IMG/VR virus record: IMGVR_UViG_3300028573_000011
Coordinates: 31,442 to 95,441 of that record
Reading direction: 5' to 3' (one strand)
Length of the DNA: 64,000 nucleotides
Origin: a virus
Shown: positions 8,385 through 40,179 of the stretch, in pieces
How positions within the stretch are numbered: the first letter of the stretch is position 1
Layout of the letters: the number at the start of each line of letters is the position of its first letter
The notes under the pieces: model-generated
The model's input: only the letters and a program-made list of their open reading frames with translations
The model's database searches: none
What the model was told of the DNA's origin: nothing
Translations under genes and position numbers: made by a program

Positions 8385-8855
8385 TCACGGCGTCCTGCCG
8401 GGGCGGCTCGCGGTCGCGCGGCGGTGAAACTCGACGCGGCGCATGACGGCGCGGGCGTGCTCGCGCACGGGCGTGGGTGTCGGCGAGTTGGCGACGGCAC
8501 CGACGACGCCGAGCAGCCCGTCGACGAGCCGGGCCGGCAGCAGGACGGCATTCCCGCCAGTTGGCGGCCGCGGCACCGGGACGGGGATGGGAACGGGAGC
8601 GGGCGTCTCGGGCTGCTGGGCTGGCCCCGGGGGTGCCGGGATGGTGCCGAGGCCGATGGCGATCGCAGCGGCCTCGGTGCGGCTGGCGGCGCCGAGCTTG
8701 AGGCAGATGCGGCTGAGGTGCGACTTGACGGTGAAGAACGCGATGCCGAGCTCGGCGCCGATCCGGGCGTTGGAGTGGCCGGCGGCCACCAGCACGAGGA
8801 CGTCGATCTCGCGGGTGGACAGCGGGGAGCCTAGGCGGGGCGTGCGGCGCTTCAT
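8385..8855 (-). CDS. LuxR-family HTH regulator without receiver domain (WhiI/BldM-like DBD)
   Basis: LSTREIDVLVLVAAGHSNARIGAELGIAFFTVKSHLSRICLKLGAASR is a LuxR/NarL HTH. Confidence 0.85.
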   Translation of the reverse strand: MKRRTPRLGSPLSTREIDVLVLVAAGHSNARIGAELGIAFFTVKSHLSRICLKLGAASRTEAAAIAIGLGTIPAPPGPAQQPETPAPVPIPVPVPRPPTGGNAVLLPARLVDGLLGVVGAVANSPTPTPVREHARAVMRRVEFHRRATASRPGRTP

Positions 8856-9012
8856 CGCGGAAGGTCCCTTCGCGCGCCCTGGACGGTCGTGTCACGGGCG
8901 GATGGGTTTGGGCCGGTACGCCTGGGCCGGACCGGTGTCGGCGCGCCTTCTGCGTGGCTTGTGGGCGTTTGGCCGTAGGCGGAGCCATTCGTCAGTTCGT
9001 TTGATGACGTGA

Positions 9013-9465
9013 TCATGCTGCTGCGCCTGTGGGGTATCCGGGCCCGGAGAGGCTGGAGGCGTCGTCGGGGACGGTCATGTCGGGGGTGGCGAGCAGCCGG
9101 ACGTGTACGGCGAAGGGGAGGAGTTCTTCGTCGCCGGTGGTGGTGTTGCGGAGGTGGACGTCGACGATCTGGGGGGCGTTCTCCCAGTTGGTGTCAGGGT
9201 TGTCGCGGGTGCTGGGTGTGCCGATGACCTGGCATTCTTCGCCGTTGATGCGGACGAGGTACTTGTCCCGGATGTCGGTGATGCCCATCGGTACCCAGGG
9301 GCGGCGTTCGGGTTCGGGTTCGTCGTCTGGGGTGAGGGTGTTGCGGAGGACGGCGAGGGTGCGGCGGATGGCGTCGGCGAGGCCTTCGGTGAGTTCGAGG
9401 GCGGCGTCGAGGATGGTGGTGGCGATGCCGGGGACTGCGCGGGTGGTGGCTTGCAGCAGGTTCAT
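9013..9465 (-). CDS. hypothetical phage protein
   Basis: Coupled ORF. Confidence 0.6.
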   Translation of the reverse strand: MNLLQATTRAVPGIATTILDAALELTEGLADAIRRTLAVLRNTLTPDDEPEPERRPWVPMGITDIRDKYLVRINGEECQVIGTPSTRDNPDTNWENAPQIVDVHLRNTTTGDEELLPFAVHVRLLATPDMTVPDDASSLSGPGYPTGAAA

Positions 9466-9782
9466 GGTCGGTCCGGGGGGTCGGGGGTTGGTCTGGCGGC
9501 GTCGAGTCGGGAGGGGTGGAGCGCGGTCATGGGGCGGCCGGTGACGGTTTGGCAGCCGAGTCCGGGGGCGGCTTTGCAGAAGGGGCAGCGGACGGCTCGG
9601 GCGCCGCCCTGTCGTGTAGGGATGGCCGGGGTGCCGTCGGGGGCTGGTATGGGGTTGGCAAGGGGCGGTCTGTGAGGCTTAACGACGTTGGTGCGCGCAA
9701 GGGCGCGGATGCCGTCTGACATGCGGCGGGCGTCTTCCATGGCGCGGCGTTCGGCGTCGGGCTCAGTGTCGGTGTTGGTCAC
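9462..9782 (-). CDS. zinc-finger protein
   Basis: VRCPFCKAAPGLGC...LHPSR motif. Confidence 0.65.
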   Translation of the reverse strand: MTNTDTEPDAERRAMEDARRMSDGIRALARTNVVKPHRPPLANPIPAPDGTPAIPTRQGGARAVRCPFCKAAPGLGCQTVTGRPMTALHPSRLDAARPTPDPPDRP

Positions 9783-9859
9783 GGGTGCTCCTCGGTGCGG
9801 CTGTCGTCGGGGCCCGGTGGGGTCGGGCCGGCCGGGGCTGGCGGTTGACGGGACGGTGG

Positions 9860-10933
9860 CTATGGGCCGTGGAGGCTGGGCATGCGGCTGCGGGCGCAGG
9901 CGGCGGCGCGGGTGATGACCAGCGGGGTGGGTGCGTTGGTGACGCCTCGGCGGGCGAGGTCGGCTTCGACTTCGGCCTGGAGGGCGGCGCCGAAATCGTC
10001 GAGTTGGCCAAGGAGCCGGCGGGCGGCGTTGTACTCCTCGTCGGTGATCACGATGTCGTCGAGGTTTTCCACAGACGTGATCGTTTCGACAAGTGAGGTG
10101 GTCGCCTTGGGTGAGTTGGTTGGTGGTAGTTGGTCAAGGTTGGTCACCGGCAACGGGTTGCCGGAACTGTGGCAACCCGTTGCCGGAAGGCTGGCAACGG
10201 GTTGCCGGAAGGGGTCGTCGCCCGGGGCGCCACTGGCGGCAACGGGTTGCCGGGAGCCTGGACCGTCGGCGGGGTTTTCCACAGGGCCTTGCGGCACCGC
10301 GTTGCCGGAAGCGGCCGTGTTGTCCACAGGGCGTTCCGGCACCGTGTTGCCGGTAGCGTGGATCCCGGGGTTCTGTTCCGGCATCCCGTTGCCGGGAGCG
10401 GGCTCGTCGTTGCCGCGCTGTTCCGGCACCGCATTGCCGGTAGGGGTCTTGGGCTCGCGGTCGATCGGCATCGCCCGGGCTGGCAGCGGCTTGCCCTGGA
10501 GCTCGGCCAGGAAGGGCCGGAGCGCGAGCGGTTTCGGCCGGATGAGCTTGCCGTCGTCGTCGCGCTCGCAGGGCTGTCCGTCGCGGCCGATGGGCTTGCC
10601 CTGGGGGTCGCGGCGCATCGGGATCGCGGGGTAGCCGGGGCCGGGCAGCGTCAGCTGGTAGGTGTCCGGGACGCCGAGCTTCCTGCCGTACTTGGTGATC
10701 TCGATCAGCCCGAGTTCGGTCAGGACACGGATGTTGTCGCGGAGGTAGCGGACGTCGGAGATGATCGCCTCGTCGGCGAGCGTCTCCTCGCTGACCTTGA
10801 CGTTGGAGCCGTCGGGGTCCGCGTAGGTGGCGAGGATCCCGGCGACGGCCTTGACGATCTGGGGCAGGTCGGAGCGTCGGATCCAGACGGCCCACATGTA
10901 GTTGCCGACCGGCTGGTGCTTCAGGTCAGCCAT
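9860..10933 (-). CDS. replication initiator (N-terminal wHTH, lambda O-like, internal iterons)
   Basis: N-terminal VKAVAGILATYADPDG...SEETLADEA...LTELGLIE wHTH; middle encodes repeated GNAVPE-type units that are DNA iterons. Confidence 0.75.
   Translation of the reverse strand: MADLKHQPVGNYMWAVWIRRSDLPQIVKAVAGILATYADPDGSNVKVSEETLADEAIISDVRYLRDNIRVLTELGLIEITKYGRKLGVPDTYQLTLPGPGYPAIPMRRDPQGKPIGRDGQPCERDDDGKLIRPKPLALRPFLAELQGKPLPARAMPIDREPKTPTGNAVPEQRGNDEPAPGNGMPEQNPGIHATGNTVPERPVDNTAASGNAVPQGPVENPADGPGSRQPVAASGAPGDDPFRQPVASLPATGCHSSGNPLPVTNLDQLPPTNSPKATTSLVETITSVENLDDIVITDEEYNAARRLLGQLDDFGAALQAEVEADLARRGVTNAPTPLVITRAAACARSRMPSLHGP
10065..10328. promoter_or_regulatory. DnaA-box-like 9-mers in the ori
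   Basis: TTTTCCACA at 10065 and 10275; TTGTCCACA at 10320; all in the same orientation. Confidence 0.6.
10149..10440. repeat. 8 iterons GGCAnnnnnTTGCCGG (putative phage ori)
   Basis: Copies start at 10149, 10171, 10193, 10238, 10293, 10338, 10380, 10425; quasi-palindromic (GGCAAC-nn-GTTGCC). Confidence 0.85.
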
Positions 10934-11040
10934 GGCGGCGCCCTTTCTCTCGTGTGCTCGGTCGGGGATCGGCGGGTCGGCCCGGCGCGTGGCCGGCGGT
11001 CCGCGGCCTGCCGGGCTCCCCTCCCGGCGGCGTGCTTGGG

Positions 11041-11694
11041 TCAGGGGCTGCCGCTGGCGACGAGCCCGGCGGCTGGCGACGTCGAGTCGGCGCCCCAGGG
11101 ACGGCCCGGGTCCCGCAGGCCCGCGGTGACGAGCGCGCTGAGGATGGCGGGAAGGGTCGCGTCTCCTATCCCGGGCCGGCTGCGCAGGTCGGCGTCAGAG
11201 GCGGCCATGAGTTCGGCGACGGTGTGGATGCCGGCCCGGCGCAGCCGGTTGTGCACCTTGACGGGCAGCGCGAGCGTCCACAGCGGGGCGTCGGGGTTGA
11301 GGGGCGTCTGCGGGGCCGCCAGCTGGGCGGCCCGGGCCGCGCGCGAGGTGTCCCGGAGCGCGTGGGTCGGCGGTGTGCCCAGCATCAGGGGCGCGTGCAC
11401 GGCGGGAGGCGTAGCCCGAATCGCGTCTCGCGCCTGGGCCAGGGCCCGCTTGCCGTACGCGGTGATCATCAATCCCCCGCGTTGGCGCTCAAGGAACCCG
11501 TCGCGCACTAGGTAGCTGGCAACATTCGCGACGTGGTTGGCGGACCGGCCGATGCGCAGCGCGATCTCGGCGGGTCGCGCGCAGGGCTGCTTGGCGCACG
11601 CCGACAGCAGCAGGTAGTCCATCCCGTTCAGCCCGAGGTGCCTCAGGCGGTAGGTGTCGGCGTGGCGCTGCTGGGTGCCGGGGAGTGTGGTCAC
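11041..11694 (-). CDS. winged-HTH fused to an RNA polymerase alpha-CTD-like domain
   Basis: N-terminal RPAEIALRIGRS...YLVRDGFLER...ITAYG; C-terminal LALPVKVHNRLRRAGIHTVAELMAASDADLRSRPGIG matches the alphaCTD HhH pattern. Confidence 0.75.
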   Translation of the reverse strand: MTTLPGTQQRHADTYRLRHLGLNGMDYLLLSACAKQPCARPAEIALRIGRSANHVANVASYLVRDGFLERQRGGLMITAYGKRALAQARDAIRATPPAVHAPLMLGTPPTHALRDTSRAARAAQLAAPQTPLNPDAPLWTLALPVKVHNRLRRAGIHTVAELMAASDADLRSRPGIGDATLPAILSALVTAGLRDPGRPWGADSTSPAAGLVASGSP

Positions 11695-12179
11695 GGGGTA
11701 GCTCCGATCGTCCAGATGCGGATGAGCACACCCGGAGCGGCTGGCGCGAGGGGGTGCTGGCCCGGGTAGTACTTGCCGGTGTCGCGGTACTCGACGACCT
11801 GGGCGTCGTCGAGCCACGCCAGGCCCTTGAGCGCGTCCTCGGTGGAGCGCAGCAGCTTGGACAGGTCCGGGGTGCAGCTGGGCAGCACGCGGCCCTTCGG
11901 CATGCGCTGGGGCGGCTGGAGCGTGAAGATCATGGAGGCGGCCAGTGCGCCGGCCAGGGGCGCGCAGTTGGCAGCGGCGTCAGCAACAGCCGCGCGCCAG
12001 GGCTTCACCTTGGCCGAGGACTCGACGAGGATCGGCGTGCGGCCGCCGTTCTTCGCGGCCCGCGTCCCGACCGCCTTCTTCGAGCCCTGCGGGCCGGGCG
12101 TGCCGCTCACGGCGAGCTGGATGGCGGGGTCGGTGTCCAGGTTGAGGCACCGGGCGCAGCAAGTGGTCGGGAAGTTCAT
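11691..12179 (-). CDS. rusA: RusA-family Holliday junction resolvase
   Basis: GTPGPQGSK; PDLSKLLRSTEDAL; WLDDAQVV. Confidence 0.85.
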   Translation of the reverse strand: MNFPTTCCARCLNLDTDPAIQLAVSGTPGPQGSKKAVGTRAAKNGGRTPILVESSAKVKPWRAAVADAAANCAPLAGALAASMIFTLQPPQRMPKGRVLPSCTPDLSKLLRSTEDALKGLAWLDDAQVVEYRDTGKYYPGQHPLAPAAPGVLIRIWTIGATP

Positions 12180-13918
12180 GCTGTCACCAGCTCGCGGTCA
12201 AGCTCGATCCCGTGGATGATCTCGGAGAGCGCCGAGACGATGACCTCGGCGGGCGGGGGCGTGACCGCGTTGCCGTAGAGCCTGGTAGCGACCTCAGCGC
12301 TGATGTCGTCGGGCATCACGAAGTCGTCGTCGAAGGCCATGCCCCTGTGCGACTCGTCGATCTTCATCATCCGGAACAGCACGGACTCCAGGCCCATGCG
12401 CTCGGCGGTCCTGGCCGCCTCGGCGCCGAGCCGGGCGATAGCATCCGTGTGCCGCTTGTCGTCGTCGGCCCGGCCCGCGTCGTCCTTCTTCAGCTCCCGG
12501 GTCTTCAGGGTGATCTCCTGGATCCGCTCGACGGACTGGATGATGTGCCGCGGGTCGACCTCCAAGCTGTTGTGGGCGCGGGACAGGGCGTAGCGGTCGC
12601 GGGTGGTCAGGGTGCCCATGGGCTCGTCGGCGGGCGCGGCGTTGCCGTTGCCGTAGTAGGGCACCATCAGGTCGAGCGTCGGCTGCTGCATCAGGCCGAT
12701 GTGGTTGCCGTTCGCGGTCAGGGTCGGCATCGGTGCGGCGGTCTTGCGGGCGCCGTTCAGGGAGCCCCCGCCGCGCATGGTGATGAGCATCGGCGGGATC
12801 GTGACGCTGGCGGTGCCCGTGTGCTGCCGGGCCCAGGCGGCCGATCTGCCTTCGGTGTCGTGCGCGATTTCGATGGGGGGCACAGCGATGCCGTCGGACT
12901 CGCGGGTGGTCCTGGTCGGCATGGGCTCGGAGACGGGCGTCGGGCTGGTCCGCCAGGTGCCGCCCGCCGGGACGAGGAAGGGCTCTCCGTACTTGACGAC
13001 ACCCATGCCGATGCGGGCCATGGTCATGGGGGCGAGCGGCGCCTCGCGGTCCCCGATCGCGGTGATCGGCTTGGTGAAGTCGAGGGCTGTCGCCGCGCCG
13101 ATGACTTCGGGGTGGACGACCTGTCCGCGGCAGTCGCTGTTCGGGCAGCGGTAAACGTACTGTCCGCTCTTGATCCCGTAGACGCCCATATCCTTGCGCG
13201 GGTCCTTGAACACCTGCATCGCCCACACTCGGCGGTCGCAGCGCGGGCACCAGGCGCGGGGCCGCAGCCACTTGTCCCAGTCGGGGTCGCGGCCGAGGGC
13301 TTCGAGCCAGTACGCCAGGTACGCGCGGTCGCGGGACTGCGGGCAGCGCTTGGTACGCACCGGGACGGCGTGTGCCGAGTTCAGCGCGATCAGCTTGGTC
13401 TTGTAGCCGAGCATGTGGAACCGGTGCAGGTACTTGTCCCACTCGGCCCACTTGCGGACCTGCGGCACGTTCTCCACGACGCCAGCCAGCACCGGAAATC
13501 CGGTCAGCCACATGGCTTCCAGATACAGGGGCACCTCGGTCATCAGCGCGCGGGAACGGATCCCCGTCTCGGAGATCTCCGGCTCCAGCCCGGGGATGGC
13601 GTACTGGTTGATCTTGTCGAACCACATCGGGCGGCCGGCGGCGTCGGTCCAGTGCGGGCAGGCCGGGGAGTCCCACTTGAACGCGCGCGGCTTGCGCTTG
13701 CTCACGCAGGTCGTCTGGATGTCGGTCTGGAGGTGCTCGGCGTCCGGGAAGTTCAGCGCATGCACGCGGATCGCGTGCGGACTGTGGTTGATGCCCTCAA
13801 CGACCCTGATGCCGGGAACCTTCCGGAGCGCCTGGGAGGAGCCGCCGGCACCGCAGAAGCCGTCTCCGGCTTCGATGTCGCCGTCGCGGTCGCGGCCACA
13901 GGTCAGCAGCGAGGTCAT
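12176..13918 (-). CDS. C5 DNA cytosine methyltransferase
   Basis: Motifs FCGAGG (I), SPAC (IV), ENV (VI), PQSRDR (VIII), GNAV (X); no cognate endonuclease nearby. Confidence 0.9.
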   Translation of the reverse strand: MTSLLTCGRDRDGDIEAGDGFCGAGGSSQALRKVPGIRVVEGINHSPHAIRVHALNFPDAEHLQTDIQTTCVSKRKPRAFKWDSPACPHWTDAAGRPMWFDKINQYAIPGLEPEISETGIRSRALMTEVPLYLEAMWLTGFPVLAGVVENVPQVRKWAEWDKYLHRFHMLGYKTKLIALNSAHAVPVRTKRCPQSRDRAYLAYWLEALGRDPDWDKWLRPRAWCPRCDRRVWAMQVFKDPRKDMGVYGIKSGQYVYRCPNSDCRGQVVHPEVIGAATALDFTKPITAIGDREAPLAPMTMARIGMGVVKYGEPFLVPAGGTWRTSPTPVSEPMPTRTTRESDGIAVPPIEIAHDTEGRSAAWARQHTGTASVTIPPMLITMRGGGSLNGARKTAAPMPTLTANGNHIGLMQQPTLDLMVPYYGNGNAAPADEPMGTLTTRDRYALSRAHNSLEVDPRHIIQSVERIQEITLKTRELKKDDAGRADDDKRHTDAIARLGAEAARTAERMGLESVLFRMMKIDESHRGMAFDDDFVMPDDISAEVATRLYGNAVTPPPAEVIVSALSEIIHGIELDRELVTA

Positions 13919-14313
13919 CGGGCGTAGCCGTTGAGCAGCTGCATCATCTGCTCATACAGCGGGTTGCCCGGCAGCGCATGGCCTTCGACGACGCCGGCGA
14001 GTTCGACGGCGGCCTTGGCCATCTCCTCTCCCACCGGGGTGTGGCTGATCCAGGAGCTGACCTGCGTATCGAGCATGTTCCAGTTGGCGATCGGCATGAC
14101 ACGCGTGCCCAGGTTGGGACGCGCGTTGATCATGCCCTTCGCTTCGAGGATCTTGAGCGCTTCGCGCACCGCCGTACGCGAGAGGCCGTAGGTGCGTGCC
14201 AGAGCCTCCGGAGAGAGCGCGCCGCCGGGGGTGTATTCGCCGGCCGCGATGGCCTTGCCGAGGATCTCGGCAAGGCGATGCGGCAGGGTGCGCCTGATGA
14301 TGATCGTGACCAT
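13915..14313 (-). CDS. truncated GntR/FadR regulator, WhiH-like DNA-binding domain
   Basis: SRTAVREALKILEAKGMINARPNLGTRVMPIANWNMLD; 132 aa with no full FCD effector domain; RBS AAAGG before ATG 14313. Confidence 0.8.
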   Translation of the reverse strand: MVTIIIRRTLPHRLAEILGKAIAAGEYTPGGALSPEALARTYGLSRTAVREALKILEAKGMINARPNLGTRVMPIANWNMLDTQVSSWISHTPVGEEMAKAAVELAGVVEGHALPGNPLYEQMMQLLNGYAR

Positions 14314-14381
14314 AATGTGCCTTTTCGGTGTGAGGTAAGGAAGACCGGTGCGTATGCCACGATCCGGATCGTGAACAGATG

Positions 14382-14954
14382 TCAGATCGCGTCGGCCGGC
14401 AGCAGGCGGGCCAGGCTTCGGACGGCTCGGTATTGCAGGGTCTTGACGGCGCCTTCCTGCTTGCCCATGATCTCGGCGGTCTCGGTGACGGACTTCTGTT
14501 CGAGGAAGCGCAGCGTGACGCACATCTGCTGCTGCTCGTTGAGCCGTTTGACGGCGCTGCGGAGTACGCAGTTGTCCAGGTACGTCACGATGGCGTCCTC
14601 GGTCGACGGCTCCAGCTCATCGCCGTCGAGCATTTCGCCGGTCGAGACCTCCCGGCGGTGGCGACTCGACTTGAAGTTGTCCGCGATGAGGTTGCGGGCG
14701 ATGGTGATGAGCCACGCTCCGAGGTCCTTGCCCTGCCAGCTGAAGGTGGTGATCCGGCACAACGCGCGGACGAACGTCTCGCTGGTGAGGTCTTCGGCCA
14801 GCGGACGGGTGGCGACGCGGTAGTAGATGAAGCGGAACACCGTGTCGCGGTAGGCGACATACAGCTCGCCGAAGGCTTCTCGGTCGCCGGCCTGGGCAGC
14901 CGTGACGATCTCCACCATTCGCTCGTGCGCGAGCACCTGGGTGCGGTCAGTCAT
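14382..14954 (-). CDS. bldN: ECF sigma factor, BldN/AdsA-like
   Basis: AQAGD.EAFG.LY...FIYYRV...AEDLTSETF.RAL.RI.TF.WQG.D.GAWL.TIARNL.AD.FKSSR...GEMLD...CVTLRFL...EGA.KTLQYRAVR.LARLLP closely follows BldN as I recall it. Confidence 0.85.
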   Translation of the reverse strand: MTDRTQVLAHERMVEIVTAAQAGDREAFGELYVAYRDTVFRFIYYRVATRPLAEDLTSETFVRALCRITTFSWQGKDLGAWLITIARNLIADNFKSSRHRREVSTGEMLDGDELEPSTEDAIVTYLDNCVLRSAVKRLNEQQQMCVTLRFLEQKSVTETAEIMGKQEGAVKTLQYRAVRSLARLLPADAI

Positions 14955-15386: not shown

Positions 15387-15620
15387 CTACTCGGCGGCGG
15401 CCGGTTCCTGCATTGGCGGCGCGTGCGCGAGTGGGGGCGTCGTAGCCCAGCGGGACGGCGGGACGTGCTCGAAGGCTTCGGCGCGACCCGCCCTCGGGCG
15501 CCGCGGCGGGATGATCGGCTCGTCCTTGTCGCGGCGGATCGCCACGTAGCTCATGGCCACACCGACGCCGATGCAGATGCCGACCAGCAGCACGGCGCCG
15601 TAGGACAGGAACGTCATCAT
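15387..15620 (-). CDS. small membrane protein
   Basis: MMTFLSYGAVLLVGICIGVGVAMSYVAIRR single TM helix; coupled to upstream stop. Confidence 0.55.
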   Translation of the reverse strand: MMTFLSYGAVLLVGICIGVGVAMSYVAIRRDKDEPIIPPRRPRAGRAEAFEHVPPSRWATTPPLAHAPPMQEPAAAE

Positions 15621-16516
15621 GACGCTGCCGCCGTTTCGGTTTCGGCGACCTCGGGCGCGGCTTCCGCCGTCGCGTCCTCGCCGACCGGGGCGGTGGCCGA
15701 GGGGAGGTCGAGCAGCCCGCGCACGGTGTCCTCCTGGAGAGGGAACTCGATCGGGATCGTGCACCCACCGCGGCCCAGACTCGACCAGATGATTTCGAGC
15801 TGTACGACGTCCTGGATGCCCCAGTTGCGCTTCTTGCAGCTGACCTTGCCCTCCAGCCGCTTGAGCTCGACGTTTCGACTGGCGTAGTTGGAGACGACCT
15901 TGGCGATGCGGTCTTCCAGAGACACACCGTTGCCGCGCTCCAAGGTCTGGAAGCACAGCGCCTTGGCCTGGTCCACGTACCAGAGCGGCAGTACCTGGAA
16001 GATCACCTCCCGGACGAACGTGGCGCCGATCCTGTTGATCGGGCCTCGGTTGTCCGGCTGTCGCTGGTCGCTCGACGGCACCACCTCGCGGCGTACCCAG
16101 TCGGGCACGAAGAACGTGGCGCTGGCCTCGCTGTTGTCTTCCTGGTCCCAGGCGAAGGCGCGGGCGTGCGTGCCGCTGTGCTGGCTGTCGCGGTGGAGCT
16201 CGATCGTGCCCCACACGGTGTTCGTCCAGCAGCGGGCGATCTCGCGTGCCAGGTAGACGCTCGCGCCGCTGGTCTGAAACGGCTTGCCGTCGTGGTCCCG
16301 TAGCGTGCGCCGGTAGAACGCCCTTTCCGCCACCACCGGGATGCTGCACGTGTAGGTCATCATCTTCCGGGCGCGCTCGATGTCGCGGGGGAACCGGCGC
16401 GCGGTGGCGATCGCGGTGTGCTTGTCCGCGATGAGCTGGGCCAGCTCCGCGTTGGCGTTCTCCCGGGCCACGATGGCCCGGTGCGGCAGCGAAACCTCGT
16501 CGTCGAGAATGCTCAT
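15617..16516 (-). CDS. putative single-strand annealing protein (RecE partner)
   Basis: Immediately downstream of the RecE-like exonuclease; ARRFPRD...AFY...GASVYLAREIARCWTN motif; not an obvious canonical RecT. Confidence 0.55.
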   Translation of the reverse strand: MSILDDEVSLPHRAIVARENANAELAQLIADKHTAIATARRFPRDIERARKMMTYTCSIPVVAERAFYRRTLRDHDGKPFQTSGASVYLAREIARCWTNTVWGTIELHRDSQHSGTHARAFAWDQEDNSEASATFFVPDWVRREVVPSSDQRQPDNRGPINRIGATFVREVIFQVLPLWYVDQAKALCFQTLERGNGVSLEDRIAKVVSNYASRNVELKRLEGKVSCKKRNWGIQDVVQLEIIWSSLGRGGCTIPIEFPLQEDTVRGLLDLPSATAPVGEDATAEAAPEVAETETAAAS

Positions 16517-16520
16517 CGCT

Positions 16521-17459
16521 TTACCAGCGCTCCCAGTTGTAGGCGTTCATCACCCACGGCGGCAGCGGCAGGCGTTCGATCCGGTCGGGGTAGGCAGGCC
16601 ATTGGCCGGACTCGGTGCACTCCCGGTAGAGGCGGATAGCCTTGCGGTTCAGCTCGCGGCCGATCTGCATCGCGTCGGGGTCGGGCCGGACGCAGCGCAC
16701 GTAGTAGGGCGCCGTCTTCTCCTGGCAGACGAGGAGGAAGTCGATGTCGTCCTTGTCGGCCAGGCCGAGCTCGACGGCGCCGTTTTCGTACCAGTCGGCC
16801 TGCTGGTGCCAGCCCTTCTCGTGCATCGCCTTACTCAGCGACAGGTCGTCGATGGCGTGGCAGCTCTTGAGGTCAACGATGACGAGACGTCCGCGACGCG
16901 TGAAGATCATCGAGTCGGGCCGGGCCCGGAGCATGACGCCGTGCTCCTCGTCGCGCCAGAACAGCGAGTGCTCGACCATGGCGTCGTCGACGGCGAACAG
17001 CGGGCCGGCCTCAGGATGGCGACGGACGATGTCGGCCATCGCCTTCATCCGGAGATACTCGTGCTTCAGCAGCGTGATCACGCCGCTCGCACGGTTCGCC
17101 TGCTCCTTCTCCTGCGTGTCCTTCTTCCGCCGGTTCTGCTCGTCGAGCATGACGACTTCGGGGTCGCCGCCGAACAGCTCGCTGTGCAGCGCGGTCCCGA
17201 ACTCCATCTCGGGGGTCGCGATGCGGCCGTGGAGGCGGTCGTAGTCGAAGCGGGCCGGGGTGCCCGGCGGGAGGATCCGCCGGGCGCCGGTGGAGGACAG
17301 GGAGCCGCCGGCGACGGGGTCGGCGTGGTACTCGCGCAGCGACATGCGCGCGCGGATGCCGGGCTCGGTGATCGGTTCGCCGCGGTACTCGGCCAGGAAC
17401 TGCGCCGGGGCGTCCGAGGCGGCCGGGTCGATGGCGAGGATGTCAGCGATGACGGTCAC
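16521..17459 (-). CDS. RecE/exonuclease VIII-like PD-(D/E)xK nuclease (DUF3799-like)
   Basis: EYHAD...LSST; FGTALH; EHSLFW; RARPD; IVDLKS; WHQQADWY; QEKTAPY. Confidence 0.88.
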   Translation of the reverse strand: MTVIADILAIDPAASDAPAQFLAEYRGEPITEPGIRARMSLREYHADPVAGGSLSSTGARRILPPGTPARFDYDRLHGRIATPEMEFGTALHSELFGGDPEVVMLDEQNRRKKDTQEKEQANRASGVITLLKHEYLRMKAMADIVRRHPEAGPLFAVDDAMVEHSLFWRDEEHGVMLRARPDSMIFTRRGRLVIVDLKSCHAIDDLSLSKAMHEKGWHQQADWYENGAVELGLADKDDIDFLLVCQEKTAPYYVRCVRPDPDAMQIGRELNRKAIRLYRECTESGQWPAYPDRIERLPLPPWVMNAYNWERW

Positions 17460-20744: not shown

Positions 20745-22154
20745 ATGGCGTGGATCGAGACTACCGAGCGCAAGGCCAAGCCGGGGCAGAAGAAGAAGCC
20801 CCTCTCCTACCATGTCCGCTGGCGCCAAGGCGGCGCCCGGGACGGCGGCAGCGAGGTCGAGACCTTCCGGGACGAGAAGGAGGCCGAACACTTCAAGGCC
20901 GCAGTCAACCTCGCCGGTGACCAGTACCCCCCCAACTTCATCCCGAAAATCGGCTGGGTCACGCCCGACGTGTACAAGGCGTTCCTCGTCGACGTCGAGG
21001 CCGCCGAGACGGAAGCCGAGCAGCCACCGCCGCCCGAGACGATCGGCGCGTTCGCCCGGAAGCTCGTACTGAGCATGACCAAGGTCGGGCGGGGCGGAAA
21101 GAAGAAGTACCTACGGATAATCGCTCTCCACATCAATCCCTGGTGGGGATCCCTCCCGATCAATGACGAGGCAACCCTCAACATGATCGGCATCGGCACG
21201 TGGATCAACGATCTGCTGGACGGCAAATCACCCCCCGTCGACCAGACGCCGCAAGATCCGCACCCGAAGCGCACGAAGCTCAAGCCGAAGACCGCCCGGA
21301 ACATCCACGGTCTCTTCTTCGCGATCATCCAGACCGCGCTGGAGATGAAGCTGCGGGCCGACAACCCGTGCCTGAAGACACAGCTGCCGAACGTCGATGA
21401 CGGCGAAGGCGACTGGGAGATGGTCTTCCTGTCCCCCGAGGAGTACGGCATGATCCGTCGCCACATGCGCGCCGACGCGGTGGATCTCACGGACCTACTT
21501 GTCGGCACCGGGGCTCGCTACTCAGAGGCCACGGGCTTCCGAAAGCGCGACCACGTCCATGACGAGACCGGCCGACCCTGGCTCAACGTGCGCAAGGCGT
21601 GGAAGAACGAGGCCGGCAACTGGGTCTTGAGCAAGCCCAAGACGCGGAAGTCCGTACGCGGGCTCGTTCTCACCGCAAGCCAGGACGAACTGGTTGCCAG
21701 ACTCACGGAGGGCAAGCAGCCCGACGACCTGGTCGTCACGAACCGGGGTGGCAACCGATGGATTCACCAGACCTACTACACACAGTGCTGGCGCCCGGCG
21801 GTCTATTGCGCGGTCCGCTGCGAACGGCACAGGAACGCCGACCTGGCCGCGGGTATCGGACGTCGCGGCTATCGGTACCTGCTTTCCGCGCACATCGTGC
21901 CCTGTGGATGTCCGGGCACGCTCACGAAGGTCCCGCGCATCCACGACCTACGGCACACTCACGTAGCGTGGCTGATCGCCAAGAAGGTCCCGGTGAAGGC
22001 GATCCAGGAGCGGCTCGGCCATCGATCGAGCCAGACTACGTTGGACCGCTACGGGCACCTGCTGGATGAGGTCGTCGACGACGTCCAGGCTGCAGTCGAC
22101 GTGATGATGGAGCGGGCAGCCGTGGACGTGGCCCAGCTGCCCGCCGCAGCCTAG
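20745..22154 (+). CDS. int: tyrosine integrase
   Basis: GTGARYSE (R), KPKT (K), HDLRHT (HxxR), LGH, RYGH (Y); likely leaderless start with TACGTT 6 nt before ATG. Confidence 0.95.
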   Translation: MAWIETTERKAKPGQKKKPLSYHVRWRQGGARDGGSEVETFRDEKEAEHFKAAVNLAGDQYPPNFIPKIGWVTPDVYKAFLVDVEAAETEAEQPPPPETIGAFARKLVLSMTKVGRGGKKKYLRIIALHINPWWGSLPINDEATLNMIGIGTWINDLLDGKSPPVDQTPQDPHPKRTKLKPKTARNIHGLFFAIIQTALEMKLRADNPCLKTQLPNVDDGEGDWEMVFLSPEEYGMIRRHMRADAVDLTDLLVGTGARYSEATGFRKRDHVHDETGRPWLNVRKAWKNEAGNWVLSKPKTRKSVRGLVLTASQDELVARLTEGKQPDDLVVTNRGGNRWIHQTYYTQCWRPAVYCAVRCERHRNADLAAGIGRRGYRYLLSAHIVPCGCPGTLTKVPRIHDLRHTHVAWLIAKKVPVKAIQERLGHRSSQTTLDRYGHLLDEVVDDVQAAVDVMMERAAVDVAQLPAAA

Positions 22155-28603: not shown

Positions 28604-29578
28604 TTACGGGGTGGCTAAGGCTGTGGCCAGGTGCGCGACGACGGCGGTCGCGATCTGGTCCGCGGTTGCCCCGGCAATCAGCAGCGGGGCCAGTGCGGCG
28701 GCCAGCGCCTTCGCGTCGACGGCCGGGGGCTGCTGGATCTTGACGGCCAGTGCGTTGACGGCGTCGCGGGCCTGCTTGGCGTACAGGGCCGCGGCCCGGG
28801 CGCCGCCGTCGGCCCAGATCAGCGCGGCGTCGTCGTCGAACTGGCCATTCGCCGGGAAGTCAGCCGCGATCTCCGGCCACTTCTGGCCGATGGTGGCTGG
28901 GATGGTGCCCATGAGGTCTCCGGAGGTGGTGGCGGTCGCTGTCGGCGTTTCCGCGCTGAGGAGGGTGAGGAGTTGCGCGACGGTGCCCCGGAAGGCGTTG
29001 TAGTCGAGCGCGCGACCGCCGTCGGTGGCCTGGTTGGTGTACTGGTACAGCGCGGGGGTCACACCGCCGTAGGCGTTCCAGCCCGAGGCCTTGTCCCCGG
29101 GGTACAGGTGCGTGGGGCTGCCGGCCCCCCCGGGGTAGGCCGAGGAGATGAGTCCCAGGCCGCGCGAGGTCAGGCCGCTCAGGCTCGGCGACCCGAGCTC
29201 CTGCCAGTACCAGTGCGGGAGGTAGACCAGGCGCAGCCGCAGTCCCGCCGCCTTCGCCGCGTCGGCGTAGGCCAGCACCTGGCTCAGGGTGGGTTTGGAC
29301 GAGCCGGACGGCTCGACGTCGAGCATGCCCGGCAGGGTCGGGTCGCCCACACACGCCTTGGTGTGCGCGATCTGCGCCGGGACGCTCTCGCTGGTCAGGA
29401 AGTGGTACCAGACGAAGGGCCGCTTCAGGCTCGCGGCCTGCCGCCGCCAGCCCTGGTACGCGGAGTCGGTGTAGTACGTGCCCTCGCTCGCCTTGGCGAT
29501 GACGAAGGAGGCGGCCGCGAGGCGCGACAGGTCCAGCCCGGCCTGATAGGCGGAGATGTCGGGTCCGTGGATCGTCAC
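28604..29578 (-). CDS. endolysin, GH25 muramidase
   Basis: DISAYQ, KASEG, YHF, LDVE, YQYT, LDYN motifs; GTG start 29578. Confidence 0.9.
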   Translation of the reverse strand: MTIHGPDISAYQAGLDLSRLAAASFVIAKASEGTYYTDSAYQGWRRQAASLKRPFVWYHFLTSESVPAQIAHTKACVGDPTLPGMLDVEPSGSSKPTLSQVLAYADAAKAAGLRLRLVYLPHWYWQELGSPSLSGLTSRGLGLISSAYPGGAGSPTHLYPGDKASGWNAYGGVTPALYQYTNQATDGGRALDYNAFRGTVAQLLTLLSAETPTATATTSGDLMGTIPATIGQKWPEIAADFPANGQFDDDAALIWADGGARAAALYAKQARDAVNALAVKIQQPPAVDAKALAAALAPLLIAGATADQIATAVVAHLATALATP

Positions 29579-29904
29579 GGCGTGGCCTCCTGGGGCGGTT
29601 CGTCTCCTGCTGCGGGAAAAGGCCCTGCGAGTCGTGCGGCGGCGGCGATCCCGGCGGCCGAGATGCGGGCGGGGACCCGGGGATGGTGCCGCTTGCAGGT
29701 CTTGAACGGTGTGCCCGGGACCGGGTGGATGGCTGGCCGCCAGCAGCGCTTCGGGTGGTCCACGTGGCAGAGGTGCCGCTTGTAGTGGGCGGCAAGGGTG
29801 CCGATGATGGCGAGTTCGCCGAGGTCGGAGCCCATGCCGGACCACCACATGTACCAGTAGCCTGATCCGCTGTCCAGGCCGAGCACGTGCGCGAGCCAGT
29901 TCAC
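29575..29904 (-). CDS. small membrane protein (holin candidate)
   Basis: Hydrophobic N-terminal half; directly upstream of the endolysin. Confidence 0.5.
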   Translation of the reverse strand: MNWLAHVLGLDSGSGYWYMWWSGMGSDLGELAIIGTLAAHYKRHLCHVDHPKRCWRPAIHPVPGTPFKTCKRHHPRVPARISAAGIAAAARLAGPFPAAGDEPPQEATP

Positions 29905-30347
29905 GCCGGCTCGTCTCTGGCCGGCACGAACTCGGCCGCGGCGTCAGAGCCGTCGCGTCGCCACCGGTTGGCCTCCCAGAGCGCCGCAGGCAGCACGTGG
30001 ATGCCGTAGTGGGTCCGGTGGTGCGCCGCGCACAGCACCTCCAGGTTCCCCGGGGACTCAGCCCAGGCCTGGAAATCCTCGTCGGAGTTGAAGTGCAGCC
30101 CCAGGGCTCGTTCGATCTTGTGCGGGTCGGTGTGGTTGATCTGGGAGAACTCCACGTGGGTGTGGTGGAGCTCCGGCGTGCCGTCGCAGAGGTCGTCGTC
30201 GATGACACACTTCCACAGGCCCTGGCGCTTCAGCCGGGCCTTCGCGGCTTCGAACAGGTGGTAATGGGGGTCGTTCTCGCGCGGGGCGTGTTCGGGGATG
30301 TGCGTCAGCAGATGCACTGTCTGGCGCTGGTCGTGGGCCGCGGTCAT
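29901..30347 (-). CDS. His/Cys-rich HNH-like protein
   Basis: C...C...ELHH...GNLEVLCAAHHR. Confidence 0.55.
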   Translation of the reverse strand: MTAAHDQRQTVHLLTHIPEHAPRENDPHYHLFEAAKARLKRQGLWKCVIDDDLCDGTPELHHTHVEFSQINHTDPHKIERALGLHFNSDEDFQAWAESPGNLEVLCAAHHRTHYGIHVLPAALWEANRWRRDGSDAAAEFVPARDEPA

Positions 30348-30386
30348 CGTGGTCCTGCCTGGAATTCGACTGTGGAGAGAACTTGG

Positions 30387-30923
30387 CTACGAATGCAGCC
30401 AGAACAGCGTGAAAGTCGATGTGATGTCCGAAGACGTGAAGGTGTTCAGCGGGCTTCCAGTGCTTTGCGACACGTACAGTTCGACATAGTCTCCTACGTT
30501 CAGGAAGACGGGCATCGAAACTGCCGGATATGCGGTTGCGTTTCCTGTGGACACCGGTGGTGCAAAGGTCGTGGTCCCCTGGATCACCGTGCCGTTCTTC
30601 GCGAACTTCACGCCTCGTGCGCTCGTACTGCTCGACGCGAAAGCGCCGCATCCAGCAAGCATGTACCAGCCGGCCACCTGGGCCGTGATCCTGGTGTTGT
30701 TGACCGAGTTGCTGTGCTGATTGTCGGTATCGAGATTCGATCCGTCATAGTTGACCGGAGCCCAGATGCCGCTGGGGATGGACTGTGTGGCGATCTGATA
30801 CACGGAGGCGGCCGGAACCGCTGTCAGAAAAGAGTTGCTGGCGGCAGGGCCCGCATTCCACAGAGCACCGGTCACCAGATTTCCCGGGGCTTGGTTTGCA
30901 CTGACGGGGACTGTCCGGGGCAC
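30387..30923 (-). CDS. tail fibre/receptor-binding protein with C1q/TNF-like head
   Basis: QSIPSG...TRITAQVAGWY...FLNVGDYVELYV; RBS AAGGAGG. Confidence 0.7.
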   Translation of the reverse strand: MPRTVPVSANQAPGNLVTGALWNAGPAASNSFLTAVPAASVYQIATQSIPSGIWAPVNYDGSNLDTDNQHSNSVNNTRITAQVAGWYMLAGCGAFASSSTSARGVKFAKNGTVIQGTTTFAPPVSTGNATAYPAVSMPVFLNVGDYVELYVSQSTGSPLNTFTSSDITSTFTLFWLHS

Positions 30924-30962
30924 GATACCCTCCTTTTTCTGTATTTCGCCGCAGGCACAAAT

Positions 30963-30989
30963 GCGCCCCGCACGGCATGTGCGGGGCGC
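30963..30989 (-). terminator. stem-loop between the tail protein and the RBP gene
   Basis: GCGCCCCGCAC-GGCAT-GTGCGGGGCGC, followed by ATTTGT on the minus strand. Confidence 0.6.
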
Positions 30990-31003
30990 TGAAGTGCTTG
31001 GGA

Positions 31004-33802
31004 TTAGTAGGCGAATTGGGCGGTATCGAATACCGCGAACGCGTCGTAGACGGTAGAACTGGTGACCCCGGCTGGCATCGGCTCGCAGACGGCAGCGCTG
31101 ACTGCGTGGTTCTGCGTGAGGTTCGCGGTCAGCGTGATGGTCACCGAGGTGTAGCCGGGCGACGTCACCGGAACCCCGCCGGTTGCGATCGTCACGGTCT
31201 CCTGCGTCCCGGCGCCGAGGTCCAGGACGAGCTGCTGGCCTCCGCACAGGGTGCCCGCGGCCGGGTTGGTCGCTGCGTCGGCCAGCGGGTTGAGCACGAT
31301 GGTGTTCGCGCCGGCGCTCGCCGGGTTCTTCAGCGTGGCGTGGATCGATGTGAAGACCGCATAGGGCGTCGTGGTGAACGGGCTGATCTGGAACGAGCTG
31401 GTCCAGTTCCCGCTGTCGTCGCCGGAGTGCGTGATCTGCTCGATGAAGCCGTCCATAGTGATCATCGGTGCAGGCGATGGCGGGCGGCGGTTGATCCGAA
31501 CGCGCTGGCCGAGGTCCAGCGCGAGCACGCTCGGGAAGAGGGCCGGGTTGGACCCCAGATCCACCAGCAGCTGCGAGATCCGCGGGTGGGGGTCCTTGTA
31601 CCTCGACAGGTGGAAGTTTGCTGCGTCCTGGCATTCGAAGCCCGACGAGGACTGGTTGTTCCGGGTCATCGTGCGGGTGCCGTAGGCGGCCTGGCTGGCT
31701 GCGTTCGCCGCGGAGAATTCCTGGTTGGTCGACGACTGCGTGACCACGATCGCGTTCGAGATGTGCGTCGTGTCGTCGTCGATCGTCAGGGACGTGTACG
31801 GCAGCTCCCCGGCGTTCTCACCGAACGTCGCCACGGGGGTCGTCGCCAGGTAGCGACGGCTGCGCGCCTGGAACGTGAGGGCTCCCCCGGCGGCGATGAA
31901 GTGCTGGCCGGCCTCGGTGTTGACGACGTCCTGCAGAGCACTGAGAGCGTCGGATCCGCTGATGTCGTTGCAGGGGCCCATGCTCAGCGTCGAGCCGGTG
32001 TCGATGCTCGTGGGCCCGGTGTAGCCGCCGTATCCGGCGATCCGGGCGTAGCGGCTGCCCGAGGACTCCCCGGTGAAAGCGGTACGCCATGCGCTGTACA
32101 GGTTCGCGATCTGGCCGTTGGTCAGGACCGTGGGCCACTGGGCGTAGTGCGCGAGGTCTCCGGCGAAGTTGCTGCCGATGGCGCCGCTGAGCGGCCACAT
32201 GCTGCCGCCGATGGATTCGTACGTGGCATTGGTCGGGTGCACGTCGAAGCCGCCGGAGGAGCCGGTGGCGACGTTCCCGTCGATCCAGAGGTTGACGGTC
32301 TGGCCGTTCGCCGACATCGTGATGAAGACCAGGTGCCAGTTGCCGTCGTTGGCCGTGACCGAGGTGTTGGTGACGCTGACTGAATGGTTGGCGGCGTTGT
32401 TGACCTGGACGAACAGCTGGGTTCCGGACGTGATCAGGTTGACGTTCCAGAAGTCGTTGAACAGCCCGCTCACGGCGCCCGGGGTGGCGCCCGCGAGGGC
32501 GTTGCCGCCCGCGGAGGTGGTGGTCGACCGGAACGCGATCATCCGGGTGAATCCGCCGGAGGGGACCCCGTTGATCCCGGCGGGACGCAGGTCCACGACG
32601 GTGCCGCCCGCAGTCGGGTTGGCGACGTTCAGCACGGGCCCGTCGGCGCCGAGGAAGGTACCGGCAGGCGTTGCCGAGGTGATCGACGTTCCTGGGGTCA
32701 GGATTCCTGTGCCCGTGGTTGAGCTGTAGGTCCCAGCAGCCGCCTTGCGGCCGGCCTGCTCGGCGAAGGTCGTCGCGCCCTGAGGGTCGTCGAGGCGGAA
32801 GAACCAGTCGGGGCCGAGCTTGGTGACCTCGTGCGTGAAGCAGTCGGTGAGCGTGCTCTGTGACAGCTGGGCCATGGCGTCGACGGCGACCGGGACGACG
32901 AGCCCGTAGGTGCCGCTGTACATCCACGACTGCGGGTAGCGCTCGATCATGCCGGCGTACACGGGGTACAGCTGGCCCGGCGTCGCGAAGGCCGAGGCGG
33001 TGGCCGCCTGCTCGAGCTGCATGCCGTCGGCCTGGAATGTCCAGTTCGAGCCGGGCGCGGTGGTCAGGGTGGCGCCGAAGGTGAGCGCAACCGCGCCGGC
33101 CGGGACGGTGCCGGTCTGGGTGACGGTGGTCCAGGTTGCCGTCGGCGAGCCGGTCAGCGTGACCGTGGAGGCGGTCGTGGTCGCGATGGTGGCGCCGCCG
33201 ATGCCCTGCCACAGCAGGAACGGCGTGATCACCGGGTTGGCGCCGGTCGTGGCCGACCGGACGTGCCGGGTGATGGTGTACTGCGTGCCCGGGGTGGCCA
33301 GGATCGAGGTGGGACCGAACGCGATCAGCACCTGCCCGGTCGTGGCCGCGCCTGCGACCGGCACTTGCCAGACCTGCGTGCCCTGCCAGGCGGACGCCGA
33401 TGCCGCGACGACGGGCGTCGCGTAGGCGCCGGTCACCAGCGATGAGGACGCCCCTGGGCTCAGGGGCGTGACCTCGCCGCCGGTGGCGACGTCGCCGTCG
33501 AGCAGGTTGACGCTCGGCGGCCAGTAGGCCCGCATGCGCCAGCCGCGGAACGGCACGACACCGGGCGCGAACGGGCTGGCGTTGTTGAACGGGTCGAGGT
33601 AGCCGTCCGTGTTCGTCCAGGAGCCGTTGAACTCTGCGGGCTGGACCTGGTCGAGCTCGTACTGCTTGCCCCGCATCGTGGACCAGGGCCCGTACAGTCG
33701 CGGCGTCAGATCGGTGTAGTAGGAGGCTGCGGTGTTGAAGTAGGGGTTGGAGCCGAAAGCGGCCTCGCCCCGGAGGTTCGGCCAGTTCGTGTTGATGGCC
33801 AT
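31004..33802 (-). CDS. tail tip protein with carbohydrate-binding and LamG-like domains
   Basis: Directly after the tape measure; DGMQLEQA, FFRLDDP, NDGNWHLV motifs. Confidence 0.8.
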   Translation of the reverse strand: MAINTNWPNLRGEAAFGSNPYFNTAASYYTDLTPRLYGPWSTMRGKQYELDQVQPAEFNGSWTNTDGYLDPFNNASPFAPGVVPFRGWRMRAYWPPSVNLLDGDVATGGEVTPLSPGASSSLVTGAYATPVVAASASAWQGTQVWQVPVAGAATTGQVLIAFGPTSILATPGTQYTITRHVRSATTGANPVITPFLLWQGIGGATIATTTASTVTLTGSPTATWTTVTQTGTVPAGAVALTFGATLTTAPGSNWTFQADGMQLEQAATASAFATPGQLYPVYAGMIERYPQSWMYSGTYGLVVPVAVDAMAQLSQSTLTDCFTHEVTKLGPDWFFRLDDPQGATTFAEQAGRKAAAGTYSSTTGTGILTPGTSITSATPAGTFLGADGPVLNVANPTAGGTVVDLRPAGINGVPSGGFTRMIAFRSTTTSAGGNALAGATPGAVSGLFNDFWNVNLITSGTQLFVQVNNAANHSVSVTNTSVTANDGNWHLVFITMSANGQTVNLWIDGNVATGSSGGFDVHPTNATYESIGGSMWPLSGAIGSNFAGDLAHYAQWPTVLTNGQIANLYSAWRTAFTGESSGSRYARIAGYGGYTGPTSIDTGSTLSMGPCNDISGSDALSALQDVVNTEAGQHFIAAGGALTFQARSRRYLATTPVATFGENAGELPYTSLTIDDDTTHISNAIVVTQSSTNQEFSAANAASQAAYGTRTMTRNNQSSSGFECQDAANFHLSRYKDPHPRISQLLVDLGSNPALFPSVLALDLGQRVRINRRPPSPAPMITMDGFIEQITHSGDDSGNWTSSFQISPFTTTPYAVFTSIHATLKNPASAGANTIVLNPLADAATNPAAGTLCGGQQLVLDLGAGTQETVTIATGGVPVTSPGYTSVTITLTANLTQNHAVSAAVCEPMPAGVTSSTVYDAFAVFDTAQFAY

Positions 33803-33811
33803 GGTGCCCCC

Positions 33812-36800: not shown

Positions 36801-36952
36801 ACCATCCCGCCGACCTTGGTCATCGCCGGGCCGAGGCCGCCCATCTTGTTGATGAGCGACTCGCCCTCGACGCCGACCGCCTTGAGCTCGCTCTTCAGCG
36901 GCCCGGACAGCAGGGTGAGCTTGATGAAGAGATCGGCAACCTCGGCAGCCAC
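33812..36952 (-). CDS. tape measure protein
   Basis: 1046 aa, Ala-rich helical with central hydrophobic stretch; C-terminal YDVGGYVPG...AIVHGGE. Confidence 0.92.
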   Translation of the reverse strand: MAAEVADLFIKLTLLSGPLKSELKAVGVEGESLINKMGGLGPAMTKVGGMVAAAGVGVAAVSVKLAGDWQQSMTKLVTSAGETGSIVHGRLVGPIADVSDQMLKMAVTTATSTKQLADAMYYVESAGYHGAQGINVLNVAAEGARAEGADVVTVANALTTALTAMGDTTGKTAVPVMNQIVAAVSLGKTSMQAFAGALHSVLPQAHAAGISLAEVLGAMSEMTRQGTSADQATQMLGHTISSLQTPNAIAIKWMNQMGVSSTDLQENLGSRGLTGTLEIVNQAILNHMGPDGKYLVQTFASSKDAAQGLQTMLQSMPAALKNLSTEVVSGTISTKDYSAAIKEMPPNLQAMGSQFLTNYKNASSFNLALRGGGTDVQTYAGLLRHMLGDQMDTNTALQIGGINLAAYTQNVKTISEASQHAGKDIENWGTITAGFNFKIEQLKQEVAATAIKIGSVLIPVLESGMSLLARHKKVVEGLAMVIGGVLLMALGMWVKSMTTALIKTVVEGSTQLAVFTAKILTTSAALMVSLLRGILETSVAFAGFVLKLVLGEEALDALKLRLAAAGIGMKTFTAETVASTTAAETAAGASGIGGLVGTLGRSLPVIGAVVVAGIGLGKWLNDLTGEASKAGPSVDQLTVALMDSSDACTALAGSGAEVTRLMSGLGLKVSADTEPMAQFGIVIGKLSQQMGGGASMTKNYDGALANLVASGNGDRAKSIMDQITAATDKNGKALINTAKDFPQYFAALDRQAAQQATAATSTQNATDALQGQDAALGQTTAAADDTASAIDGVTQAQQTMTAGLEMSGAMDNFQKQLKNVRQALIDNGSALTGNSDAALANRDALRQAAQGAVDVYNDNIKNGKMGIPAATQALKDQIQALVNTSSTSESTRKKVQAYIDTLGLIPPDIQTNLNVSVTGMTDIQKMLAASGVVVVGGNTVGHGKGQSRMASYDVGGYVPGPKGAPQLAIVHGGEFVLSNDMLAAASKGGGAGPMVSTASGGGAPVYVNNIYIAGSVLAERDLRNLMQTQMLQLGGRNSTSYTAYKR

Positions 36953-37474: not shown

Positions 37475-37475
37475 G

Positions 37476-40172: not shown

Positions 40173-40179
40173 GGGTCGG

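Follow-up and report, generated by a model that had tools for sequence, protein, structure and literature searches.

A BldN-family sigma factor in the early operon of a temperate actinophage

The window analysed here, a 64,000-nucleotide stretch of the IMG/VR virus record IMGVR_UViG_3300028573_000011, carries four putative regulators of transcription in one early operon: a sigma factor of the extracytoplasmic function (ECF) class, a GntR protein without an effector domain, a LuxR/GerE helix-turn-helix (HTH) protein, and a winged HTH (wHTH) fused to a module resembling the C-terminal domain of the RNA polymerase alpha subunit (alphaCTD). The window corresponds to positions 26391-90390 of a 95,233-bp contig, C2, assigned to bin G000 (6.9 Mb, 359 contigs), a metagenome-assembled genome (MAG) from rhizosphere metagenomes. 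Genes called by third-position GC (GC3) form a nearly continuous minus-strand array across the window, and all four regulators lie on that strand. The genes among which they sit encode a RusA resolvase, a C5 methylase, a PDDEXK nuclease and a zinc-finger protein, as well as a protein that weakly matches a replication initiator (Pfam, PHROG), and 4-nt overlaps join the GntR, methylase, RusA and alphaCTD genes. An original prediction, made from this DNA alone, had placed four regulators of these architectures in the early operon, which the Pfam domains confirm. It had also read them as a kit spanning several tiers of the Streptomyces bld/whi developmental cascade; within the set, only the sigma factor is a specific homologue of a developmental regulator.

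The sigma factor has the ECF architecture, with Sigma70_r2 and r4_2 domains and no region 3 (Pfam). It scores 193.6 bits on the NCBIfam model TIGR02952 ('BldN family') and 94 on the second-best model. In the PDB, chain 6dxo_A (Streptomyces venezuelae BldN) matches at E=7e-58 and 198 bits, with ~70% identity over sigma-2 and sigma-4, and the second chain, SigW, reaches 56 bits. Among 5.8 billion proteins, 3144 homologues were found at E<=1e-20. The top homologues are 65-75% identical and include proteins named BldN by NCBI in Catenulispora, Actinospica, Actinocrinis, Streptomyces and Kitasatospora, while the best 80 loci in named genomes are all chromosomal bldN genes, at 66-69% identity to the phage sigma. 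Family members are expected to share well over 50% identity with Streptomyces BldN (PMC4255298); the phage sigma does so and also falls inside the BldN clade. In alignment with cellular BldN, the recognition segments of sigma-2 and of sigma-4 are nearly invariant. One point tells against the assignment: the TIGR02952 score lies 13 bits below the NCBI cut-off (206.45). Chromosomal BldN-like genes of Streptosporangiales, at 189-202 bits, likewise fall below it. On its sequence, the predicted protein is a true BldN-family (ECF121) factor, and the earlier view that it resembles BldN specifically is borne out.

Phylogeny agrees with this placement. In a maximum-likelihood tree with the host's other ECF factors as outgroup, the phage sigma is nested in the BldN clade, where it sits in a Catenulispora-type grade with two short metagenomic forms, outside the clade of Actinospica, Streptomyces, Kitasatospora and Streptosporangiales BldN (100/99). 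Short BldN-like sigmas also occur in the early regions of three other viral contigs, at 59% (L035), 67% (L172) and 63% identity (L173). L173 shares with the phage its integrase, two neighbouring genes and the early-operon layout (tblastn), running from a homologue of gene 25390-26472 through the integrase and a homologue of gene 20010-20459 to an early operon with the sigma. The L035 sigma branches apart, beside the f4/f1 group (98/95), so phages have taken up bldN on two occasions or more. On L172 the sigma gene is followed by one (10578-11099, plus strand) for a protein with the HAD_SAK_2 'Swiss Army Knife RNA repair' domain, an echo of the RNA repair genes in the window described below.

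Cellular BldN proteins are mostly 250-295 aa long, and the phage sigma aligns with their mature core only. The hallmark of ECF121 factors is an N-terminal pro-peptide extension, which in S. coelicolor is cleaved to yield the mature factor (PMC7826278). No pro-peptide was found on the phage sigma, whose stop-to-stop frame permits at most 218 aa. Nor was rsbN found beside it, since its neighbours are the GntR gene downstream and a small transmembrane open reading frame (ORF) upstream, and no BldN-type rsbN promoter was found after the sigma gene. The small ORF overlaps the sigma start by 8 nt, an arrangement of translational coupling, and is without a family match; it may have an anti-sigma role. 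The likeness to Streptomyces sigma-BldN extends over the two-domain ECF core, the 65-75% identity, the recognition segments and the clade. The phage copy differs in being phage-encoded, in having neither a pro-peptide nor an adjacent rsbN, and in its position below the NCBIfam cut-off.

The BldN residues that contact RsbN are named in the paper on the RsbN-BldN structure (PMC6101532), with which the residue numbering of 6dxo_A agrees. Mapped on the 6dxo_A alignment, 13 of these 18 residues are identical in the phage sigma, the hydrophobic core included. Four are changed non-conservatively (A12R, D20V, S23R and L119R), at positions that also vary among cellular BldNs. The factor had been called signal-independent, which fits the missing pro-peptide and rsbN but not the retention of most RsbN contacts; it may either escape RsbN or titrate it. 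The conserved contacts, together with the absence of an anti-sigma gene beside the sigma, are what would be seen if the protein were mainly a decoy, either binding host RsbN and thereby freeing host BldN or occupying core RNA polymerase without productive transcription. We find such a role highly unlikely, as the four non-conservative changes stand against it, at positions no more constant in cellular BldNs, and the intact DNA-recognition segments favour a working sigma.

Table 1. Features of the window, with positions counted from its first letter.
Feature	Position	Strand	Basis or remark
BldN-family (ECF121-type) sigma factor, 190 aa	14382..14954	-	Pfam, TIGR02952, PDB, tree
Truncated FadR-type GntR, 132 aa	13915..14313	-	Pfam GntR; true start ATG 14313
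LuxR/GerE HTH protein, 156 aa	8385..8855	-	Pfam GerE
MarR-like wHTH + alphaCTD-like helix-hairpin-helix fusion, 217 aa	11041..11694	-	True start GTG 11694
Small ORF, ~73 aa from GTG 15168, transmembrane segment	14947..15168	-	Coding-type GC3, translation
C5 cytosine DNA methyltransferase	12176..13918	-	Pfam, PHROG; translationally coupled to neighbours
RusA-like Holliday junction resolvase	11691..12179	-	Pfam, PHROG_140
357-aa protein, weak phage replication initiator match	9860..10933	-	phrog_270, E=1.4e-4
Phage zinc-finger DNA-binding protein	9462..9782	-	PF24623
Early recombination genes: 299-aa protein and PDDEXK/DUF3799 nuclease	15617..17459	-	Pfam
Tyrosine integrase	20745..22154	+	Pfam
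Lysis and structural module (GH25 lysozyme, tail proteins, tape measure, major capsid, portal, large terminase)	28604..51460	-	PHROGs, Pfam

Upstream of the regulators lie the PDDEXK nuclease and other early genes, followed by the divergent integrase, the GH25 lysozyme and a tail-to-terminase module that is complete (31.0-51.5 kb). Integrase, terminase, portal, capsid, tape measure and lysin lie in one block, as in a temperate tailed phage, and the operon that holds the regulators is an early one in a temperate, siphovirus-like actinophage. In other rhizosphere samples, contigs cover positions 10422-14474, 12574-14957 and 14447-15714 with 0-2 differences. One of these tiling contigs spans the alphaCTD, RusA, methylase and GntR genes and the 3' end of the sigma gene, and another spans methylase, GntR and sigma. 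Because contigs of other samples reproduce the operon, its gene order is no assembly artefact. Many short contig joints with ~21-letter sides were regarded as noise from other organisms. No terminal repeats or overlap were found on C2, and a DNA-level search of deposited phages gave matches limited to fragments of the methylase and RusA genes.

The GntR protein is a truncated FadR-type regulator. Its wHTH is followed by ~60 aa that match the linker and the helices with which an FCD domain begins, and the FCD effector domain is absent. In a word-indexed homologue search, P0122 (58%) was the one close relative among otherwise generic matches; the search's prefilter missed WhiH, and the search was not relied on for the GntR or LuxR proteins. 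A direct search covered five named genomes, three from Streptomyces and one each from Kitasatospora and Actinospica. Every one of the five has one GntR paralogue that stands out, at 78-81 bits and 38-41% identity over query residues 9-111, with the next at 53-63 bits. The standout is a 284-288-aa FadR-type gene. Directly after it, in the genome checked, lies the gene for the principal sigma factor (NF004561, 843 bits), and in the other three chromosomes a gene of 517-551 aa. This neighbour fits whiH (SCO5819), which we take to adjoin hrdB (SCO5820). That WhiH is SCO5819 has been reported (PMC5839063).

In a first small tree the phage GntR was sister to WhiH (81/72). A survey of 400 genomes of the class gave 77-80 bits for Streptomyces WhiH against the phage protein, and FadR proteins of Streptosporangiales other than WhiH equal it, with one in G009 at 79.7 bits and 46% identity and others at 70-75 bits. 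Once these were added, the phage GntR fell in a polytomy. WhiH remains its maximum-likelihood sister, weakly favoured at 68/80, and the tests leave two other placements standing (p-AU 0.28 and 0.18). Short GntR proteins made up of the HTH alone are common, with many clusters in the protein atlas, where the phage protein comes closest in fold to the N-terminal portion of FCD-domain regulators. A full WhiH consists of wHTH and FCD in about 285-305 aa, well beyond the 132 aa of the phage protein. The two proteins share the FadR-type subfamily and 38-43% identity over ~100 aa, which reaches beyond the wHTH. They differ in that the phage GntR has no FCD effector domain, no hrdB adjacency, and equal matches to other FadR proteins. 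Of the earlier description as a truncated WhiH, the missing effector domain stands and the sister placement is weakly favoured; specificity for WhiH is undercut by the equal scores and the unrejected alternatives. WhiH is a possible relative of the phage protein.

The LuxR protein consists of an N-terminal HTH (residues 11-66), a Pro-rich linker and a conserved C-terminal tail of ~60 aa. It contains no receiver domain, unlike WhiI, a NarL-type regulator with a degenerate receiver. Its closest relative in the homologue search is P0134 (75%), with otherwise generic matches. In four Streptomycetaceae genomes, the top match is an atypical response regulator of 219-238 aa that lies 160-350 kb from whiH. 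It is near-identical in three Streptomyces genomes, differing mainly in the linker, and WhiI has been described as conserved with differences mainly there (PMC4125116). BldM, taken to be the regulator with 100% identity between two Streptomyces genomes, matched the phage protein less well than this WhiI candidate. A 78-column tree grouped the phage LuxR with WhiI at 93/100, with a long-branch warning. WhiI scores 49-54 bits and leads other LuxR paralogues by 2-8 bits, and in 104 of 401 genomes (60 genera) an ordinary, unrelated LuxR protein matches as well or better, at 52-65 bits and up to 63% identity. The predicted protein is generic rather than WhiI-specific, and its proposed derivation from WhiI is not upheld. 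The tree groupings with WhiI and WhiH from small samples were overturned or weakened because sampling was widened, and under that sampling the resemblances dissolved. Directly downstream of the LuxR gene are three tandem DUF6745 paralogues (4371-8551, minus strand).

The fourth regulator carries a MarR-like wHTH in its N-terminal half, and its start, GTG 11694, overlaps the RusA stop. PF03118 (RNA_pol_A_CTD) matches the remainder at 32.1 bits, above the cut-off of 23.8, so the predicted fusion is present. The alphaCTD matches RpoA in the PDB at E=1e-5 and is 36-38% identical to the 351-aa-frame genes taken as rpoA. HMMER, run exhaustively against 1.84 billion representatives, brought up a single full-length relative (P0240, 69%) and, at a greater distance, one protein of two domains. 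The remaining matches cover the helix-hairpin-helix module only, often as tandem repeats, and proteins with such repeats outscore RpoA itself. When viral contigs were scanned with the single alphaCTD protein sequence, nothing matched. The RNA_pol_A_CTD match and identity link the protein to the C-terminal domain of RNA polymerase alpha; it differs from that subunit in its fused wHTH and in having no alpha N-terminal domain. The fusion is real and rare, and its relation to RpoA is at the family level only.

In the related prophages and sigma-bearing viral contigs that were compared, the four genes were not found together. Capsid relatives occur in 5/301 genomes of the Actinospica-centred order, at 50-67% identity, and in 0/300 genomes of the bin's order, Streptosporangiales. 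In prophages of two of the five (G334 and G325), which are Streptomyces-like and Catenulispora-like genomes, the structural module is wholly collinear with that of the phage (tblastn), and nothing of the phage's early region is common to either prophage. Four of the five genomes have a chromosomal BldN, and the fifth has none at E<=1e-30; G334 has two further, weaker BldN-like paralogues (46-48%). A WhiH-sized GntR is present in 5/5 and a phage-type LuxR in 0/5, and the sole alphaCTD match is the gene taken as rpoA. Likewise, no GntR, LuxR or alphaCTD homologues were found near the sigma genes of L035, L172 and L173. Co-occurrence in related prophages, which had been named as a check on the idea of a kit, is accordingly lacking, as it is in the other sigma-bearing viral contigs. 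On the contig of one related prophage, 80 kb from its capsid gene, locus L186 (G334:C3:170000-189999) holds a short, divergent sigma resembling BldN (46% identity; frame of 194 aa) and, ~8 kb away, a match to the LuxR HTH (47%), at about 1736-1918 and 10160-10657. The two may belong to a further element in which a sigma accompanies a LuxR protein.

In the kit as originally conceived, BldN would act together with a DNA-binding domain taken from WhiH and an HTH taken from WhiI, as signal-independent counterparts of several tiers of the bld/whi cascade. As regards BldN, this is upheld by the sequence. WhiH stands out alone among the GntR paralogues of five genomes, adjoins hrdB and keeps its place as maximum-likelihood sister, and WhiI is the top LuxR match in four genomes and joins the phage protein in the small tree. 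Such a kit is nevertheless very improbable given that other FadR proteins match equally and alternative placements survive, that LuxR matches in 104/401 genomes equal or exceed WhiI, that the LuxR protein has no receiver, which we take to be the part of WhiI that pairs with BldM, that short HTH-only GntR proteins are common, and that the set does not recur in related prophages or viral contigs. The original prediction is partly supported, in that the locus has one captured developmental sigma amid ordinary phage regulators, with no demonstrated multi-tier bld/whi kit. Most simply, the GntR, LuxR HTH and wHTH-alphaCTD proteins are the phage's own early DNA-binding regulators, among which the GntR could be a WhiH relative. 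A narrower takeover, in which a BldN without pro-peptide or rsbN and a WhiH-derived DNA-binding module would seize two tiers of the programme for aerial growth and sporulation in the host, is improbable. If true, it could block the developmental containment of plaques or let the phage ride into spores, and would be the first actinophage system to reprogramme Streptomyces-type development with captured host regulators.

The promoters that the sigma might read were sought with a motif derived from the bldN-rsbN intergenic region of 40 named loci. CGTAAC-N17-CGTTG lies upstream of rsbN in 38/40 of them, in agreement with the published BldN promoter, CGTAAC-N16-CGTTGA (PMC2375139). As a positive control, every chromosomal bldN locus yields exactly one perfect match, at rsbN. 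Whole genomes contain five (G031) and seven (G334) exact sites, compared with none for a control pattern; these include rsbNp and, in Streptomyces, one located 126 nt upstream of bldM, a gene of 203 aa. Nothing in the window matches, looser forms included, and the 95-kb contig has no exact site and two one-mismatch matches, both on the non-coding strand (background 2.4/95 kb), in a scan that covers the canonical BldN motif and would be escaped by an altered specificity. The other three sigma-bearing viral contigs and two related prophages show the motif at background only. A de novo search of 37 phage intergenic regions gave no recurrent two-block promoter motif. A promoter matrix scan was discarded as over-fitted, and a mild excess of host sites at 18-nt spacing looked like scattered chance matches.

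Phage-encoded late-gene sigma factors are well known. The phage protein could be one of them, made early and directed at structural and lysis promoters that have drifted from the BldN consensus rather than at host genes. Its PHROG_1740 match ('RNA polymerase sigma factor', E=1.5e-25) and its position suit such a role, as it lies ~5 kb into the early operon both here and in L173, where a middle- or late-gene sigma would be, and among recombination genes in L035. The lack of BldN-type promoters on the 95-kb contig and the three other viral loci, and of any recurrent motif between phage genes, makes this unlikely. So does the absence of a phage sigma from related prophages with the same structural module. 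Moreover, the near-invariance of the recognition segments with cellular BldN argues that the sigma most likely reads host BldN-type promoters, not phage ones.

A captured BldN sigma directed at the host is the best explanation of the locus, with a probability of roughly one half. In this scheme, bldN would have been taken from a host as the mature core, leaving behind both the pro-peptide and rsbN, the anti-sigma gene. During infection or induction, the phage sigma would load onto host RNA polymerase and fire BldN-dependent promoters of the host, those of rsbN and bldM (p1) and perhaps also of the sheath genes. The aerial-development programme, which would otherwise limit phage spread, might thereby be retimed or forced. 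We infer RNA polymerase binding, action on host promoters and an effect on development. A bldN mutant cannot contain phage plaques (PMC10117723).

Apart from the early-operon position and the possible escape of an altered specificity from the motif scan, the assigned host weighs against a host-directed sigma. Ribosomal proteins of G000 cluster with 'Streptosporangiaceae bacterium' MAGs, Nocardiopsis, Actinomadura and Sinosporangium. Apart from the phage copy, the bin contains no BldN exceeding the family cut-off, no chaplin match and no exact BldN-type promoter site, and BldN is found in 0/4 genomes of its genus, a tally that includes two unpublished genomes (G024 and G030). It also has no WhiI orthologue, the best match being 35-38% identical. 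If this Streptosporangiales bin is the true host, there is therefore no regulon to hijack. Both the closest relatives of the sigma and the prophages related to this phage indicate Catenulispora-like and Streptomyces-like hosts instead; named Catenulispora BldN proteins share 87-90% identity with the BldN of G325. The assignment of the phage to this host is doubtful, and either the contig was mis-binned or the phage crossed orders. Mis-binning is likely, with capsid relatives in 5/301 genomes of the Actinospica-centred order and in 0/300 of the bin's order. The ends of C2, outside the window (L036 27-3689 and L038 2741-4843), carry genes like those of conjugative elements, on the same contig as the phage: DUF2637, HATPase, a GntR/UTRA regulator of full length and a TraB-like gene of the FtsK/SpoIIIE type.

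Two further groups of genes lie elsewhere in the window. A cytochrome P450-like ORF (23715-24830, plus strand; PF00067, E=5e-20, C-terminal part only) is odd cargo for a phage and sits in a low-GC3 stretch between the integrase and the lysis genes. Genes for an RlaP-type nucleotidyltransferase and a T4 Rnl1-type RNA ligase (59717-62585, minus strand) are located upstream of a tRNA-Met gene at about 57458-57532 (minus strand), and this region is likely an RNA repair module.

Among 50,697 deposited phage records no BldN-type sigma was found, the best match being 33% identical, in Streptomyces phage Gilgamesh, and the literature searched yielded no description of a phage BldN-type sigma. The Fe-S protein WhiB binds to the principal sigma factor and occurs widely among isolated phages. 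Actinobacteriophages carry WhiB-like regulators, according to work cited in PMC10117723. The phage BldN is comparable in being an actinophage homologue of a Streptomyces developmental regulator family, but differs in its absence from those deposited phages. In Bacillus phages, in turn, sporulation sigma factors have phage-encoded homologues (Schwartz et al. 2022, cited in PMC10117723). Here the sigma is of the ECF class rather than the SigF/SigG type, the host phylum is different, and the programme concerned is that of aerial hyphae and their hydrophobic sheath, not the endospore. Streptomyces-type development limits phage spread, and a phage-borne BldN would be the actinomycete counterpart of the Bacillus phage sporulation sigmas, from a different sigma class. 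It would offer a direct way into the question of how aerial development is disturbed by phages and a natural 'mature-form' BldN with which to study control by the pro-peptide and RsbN.

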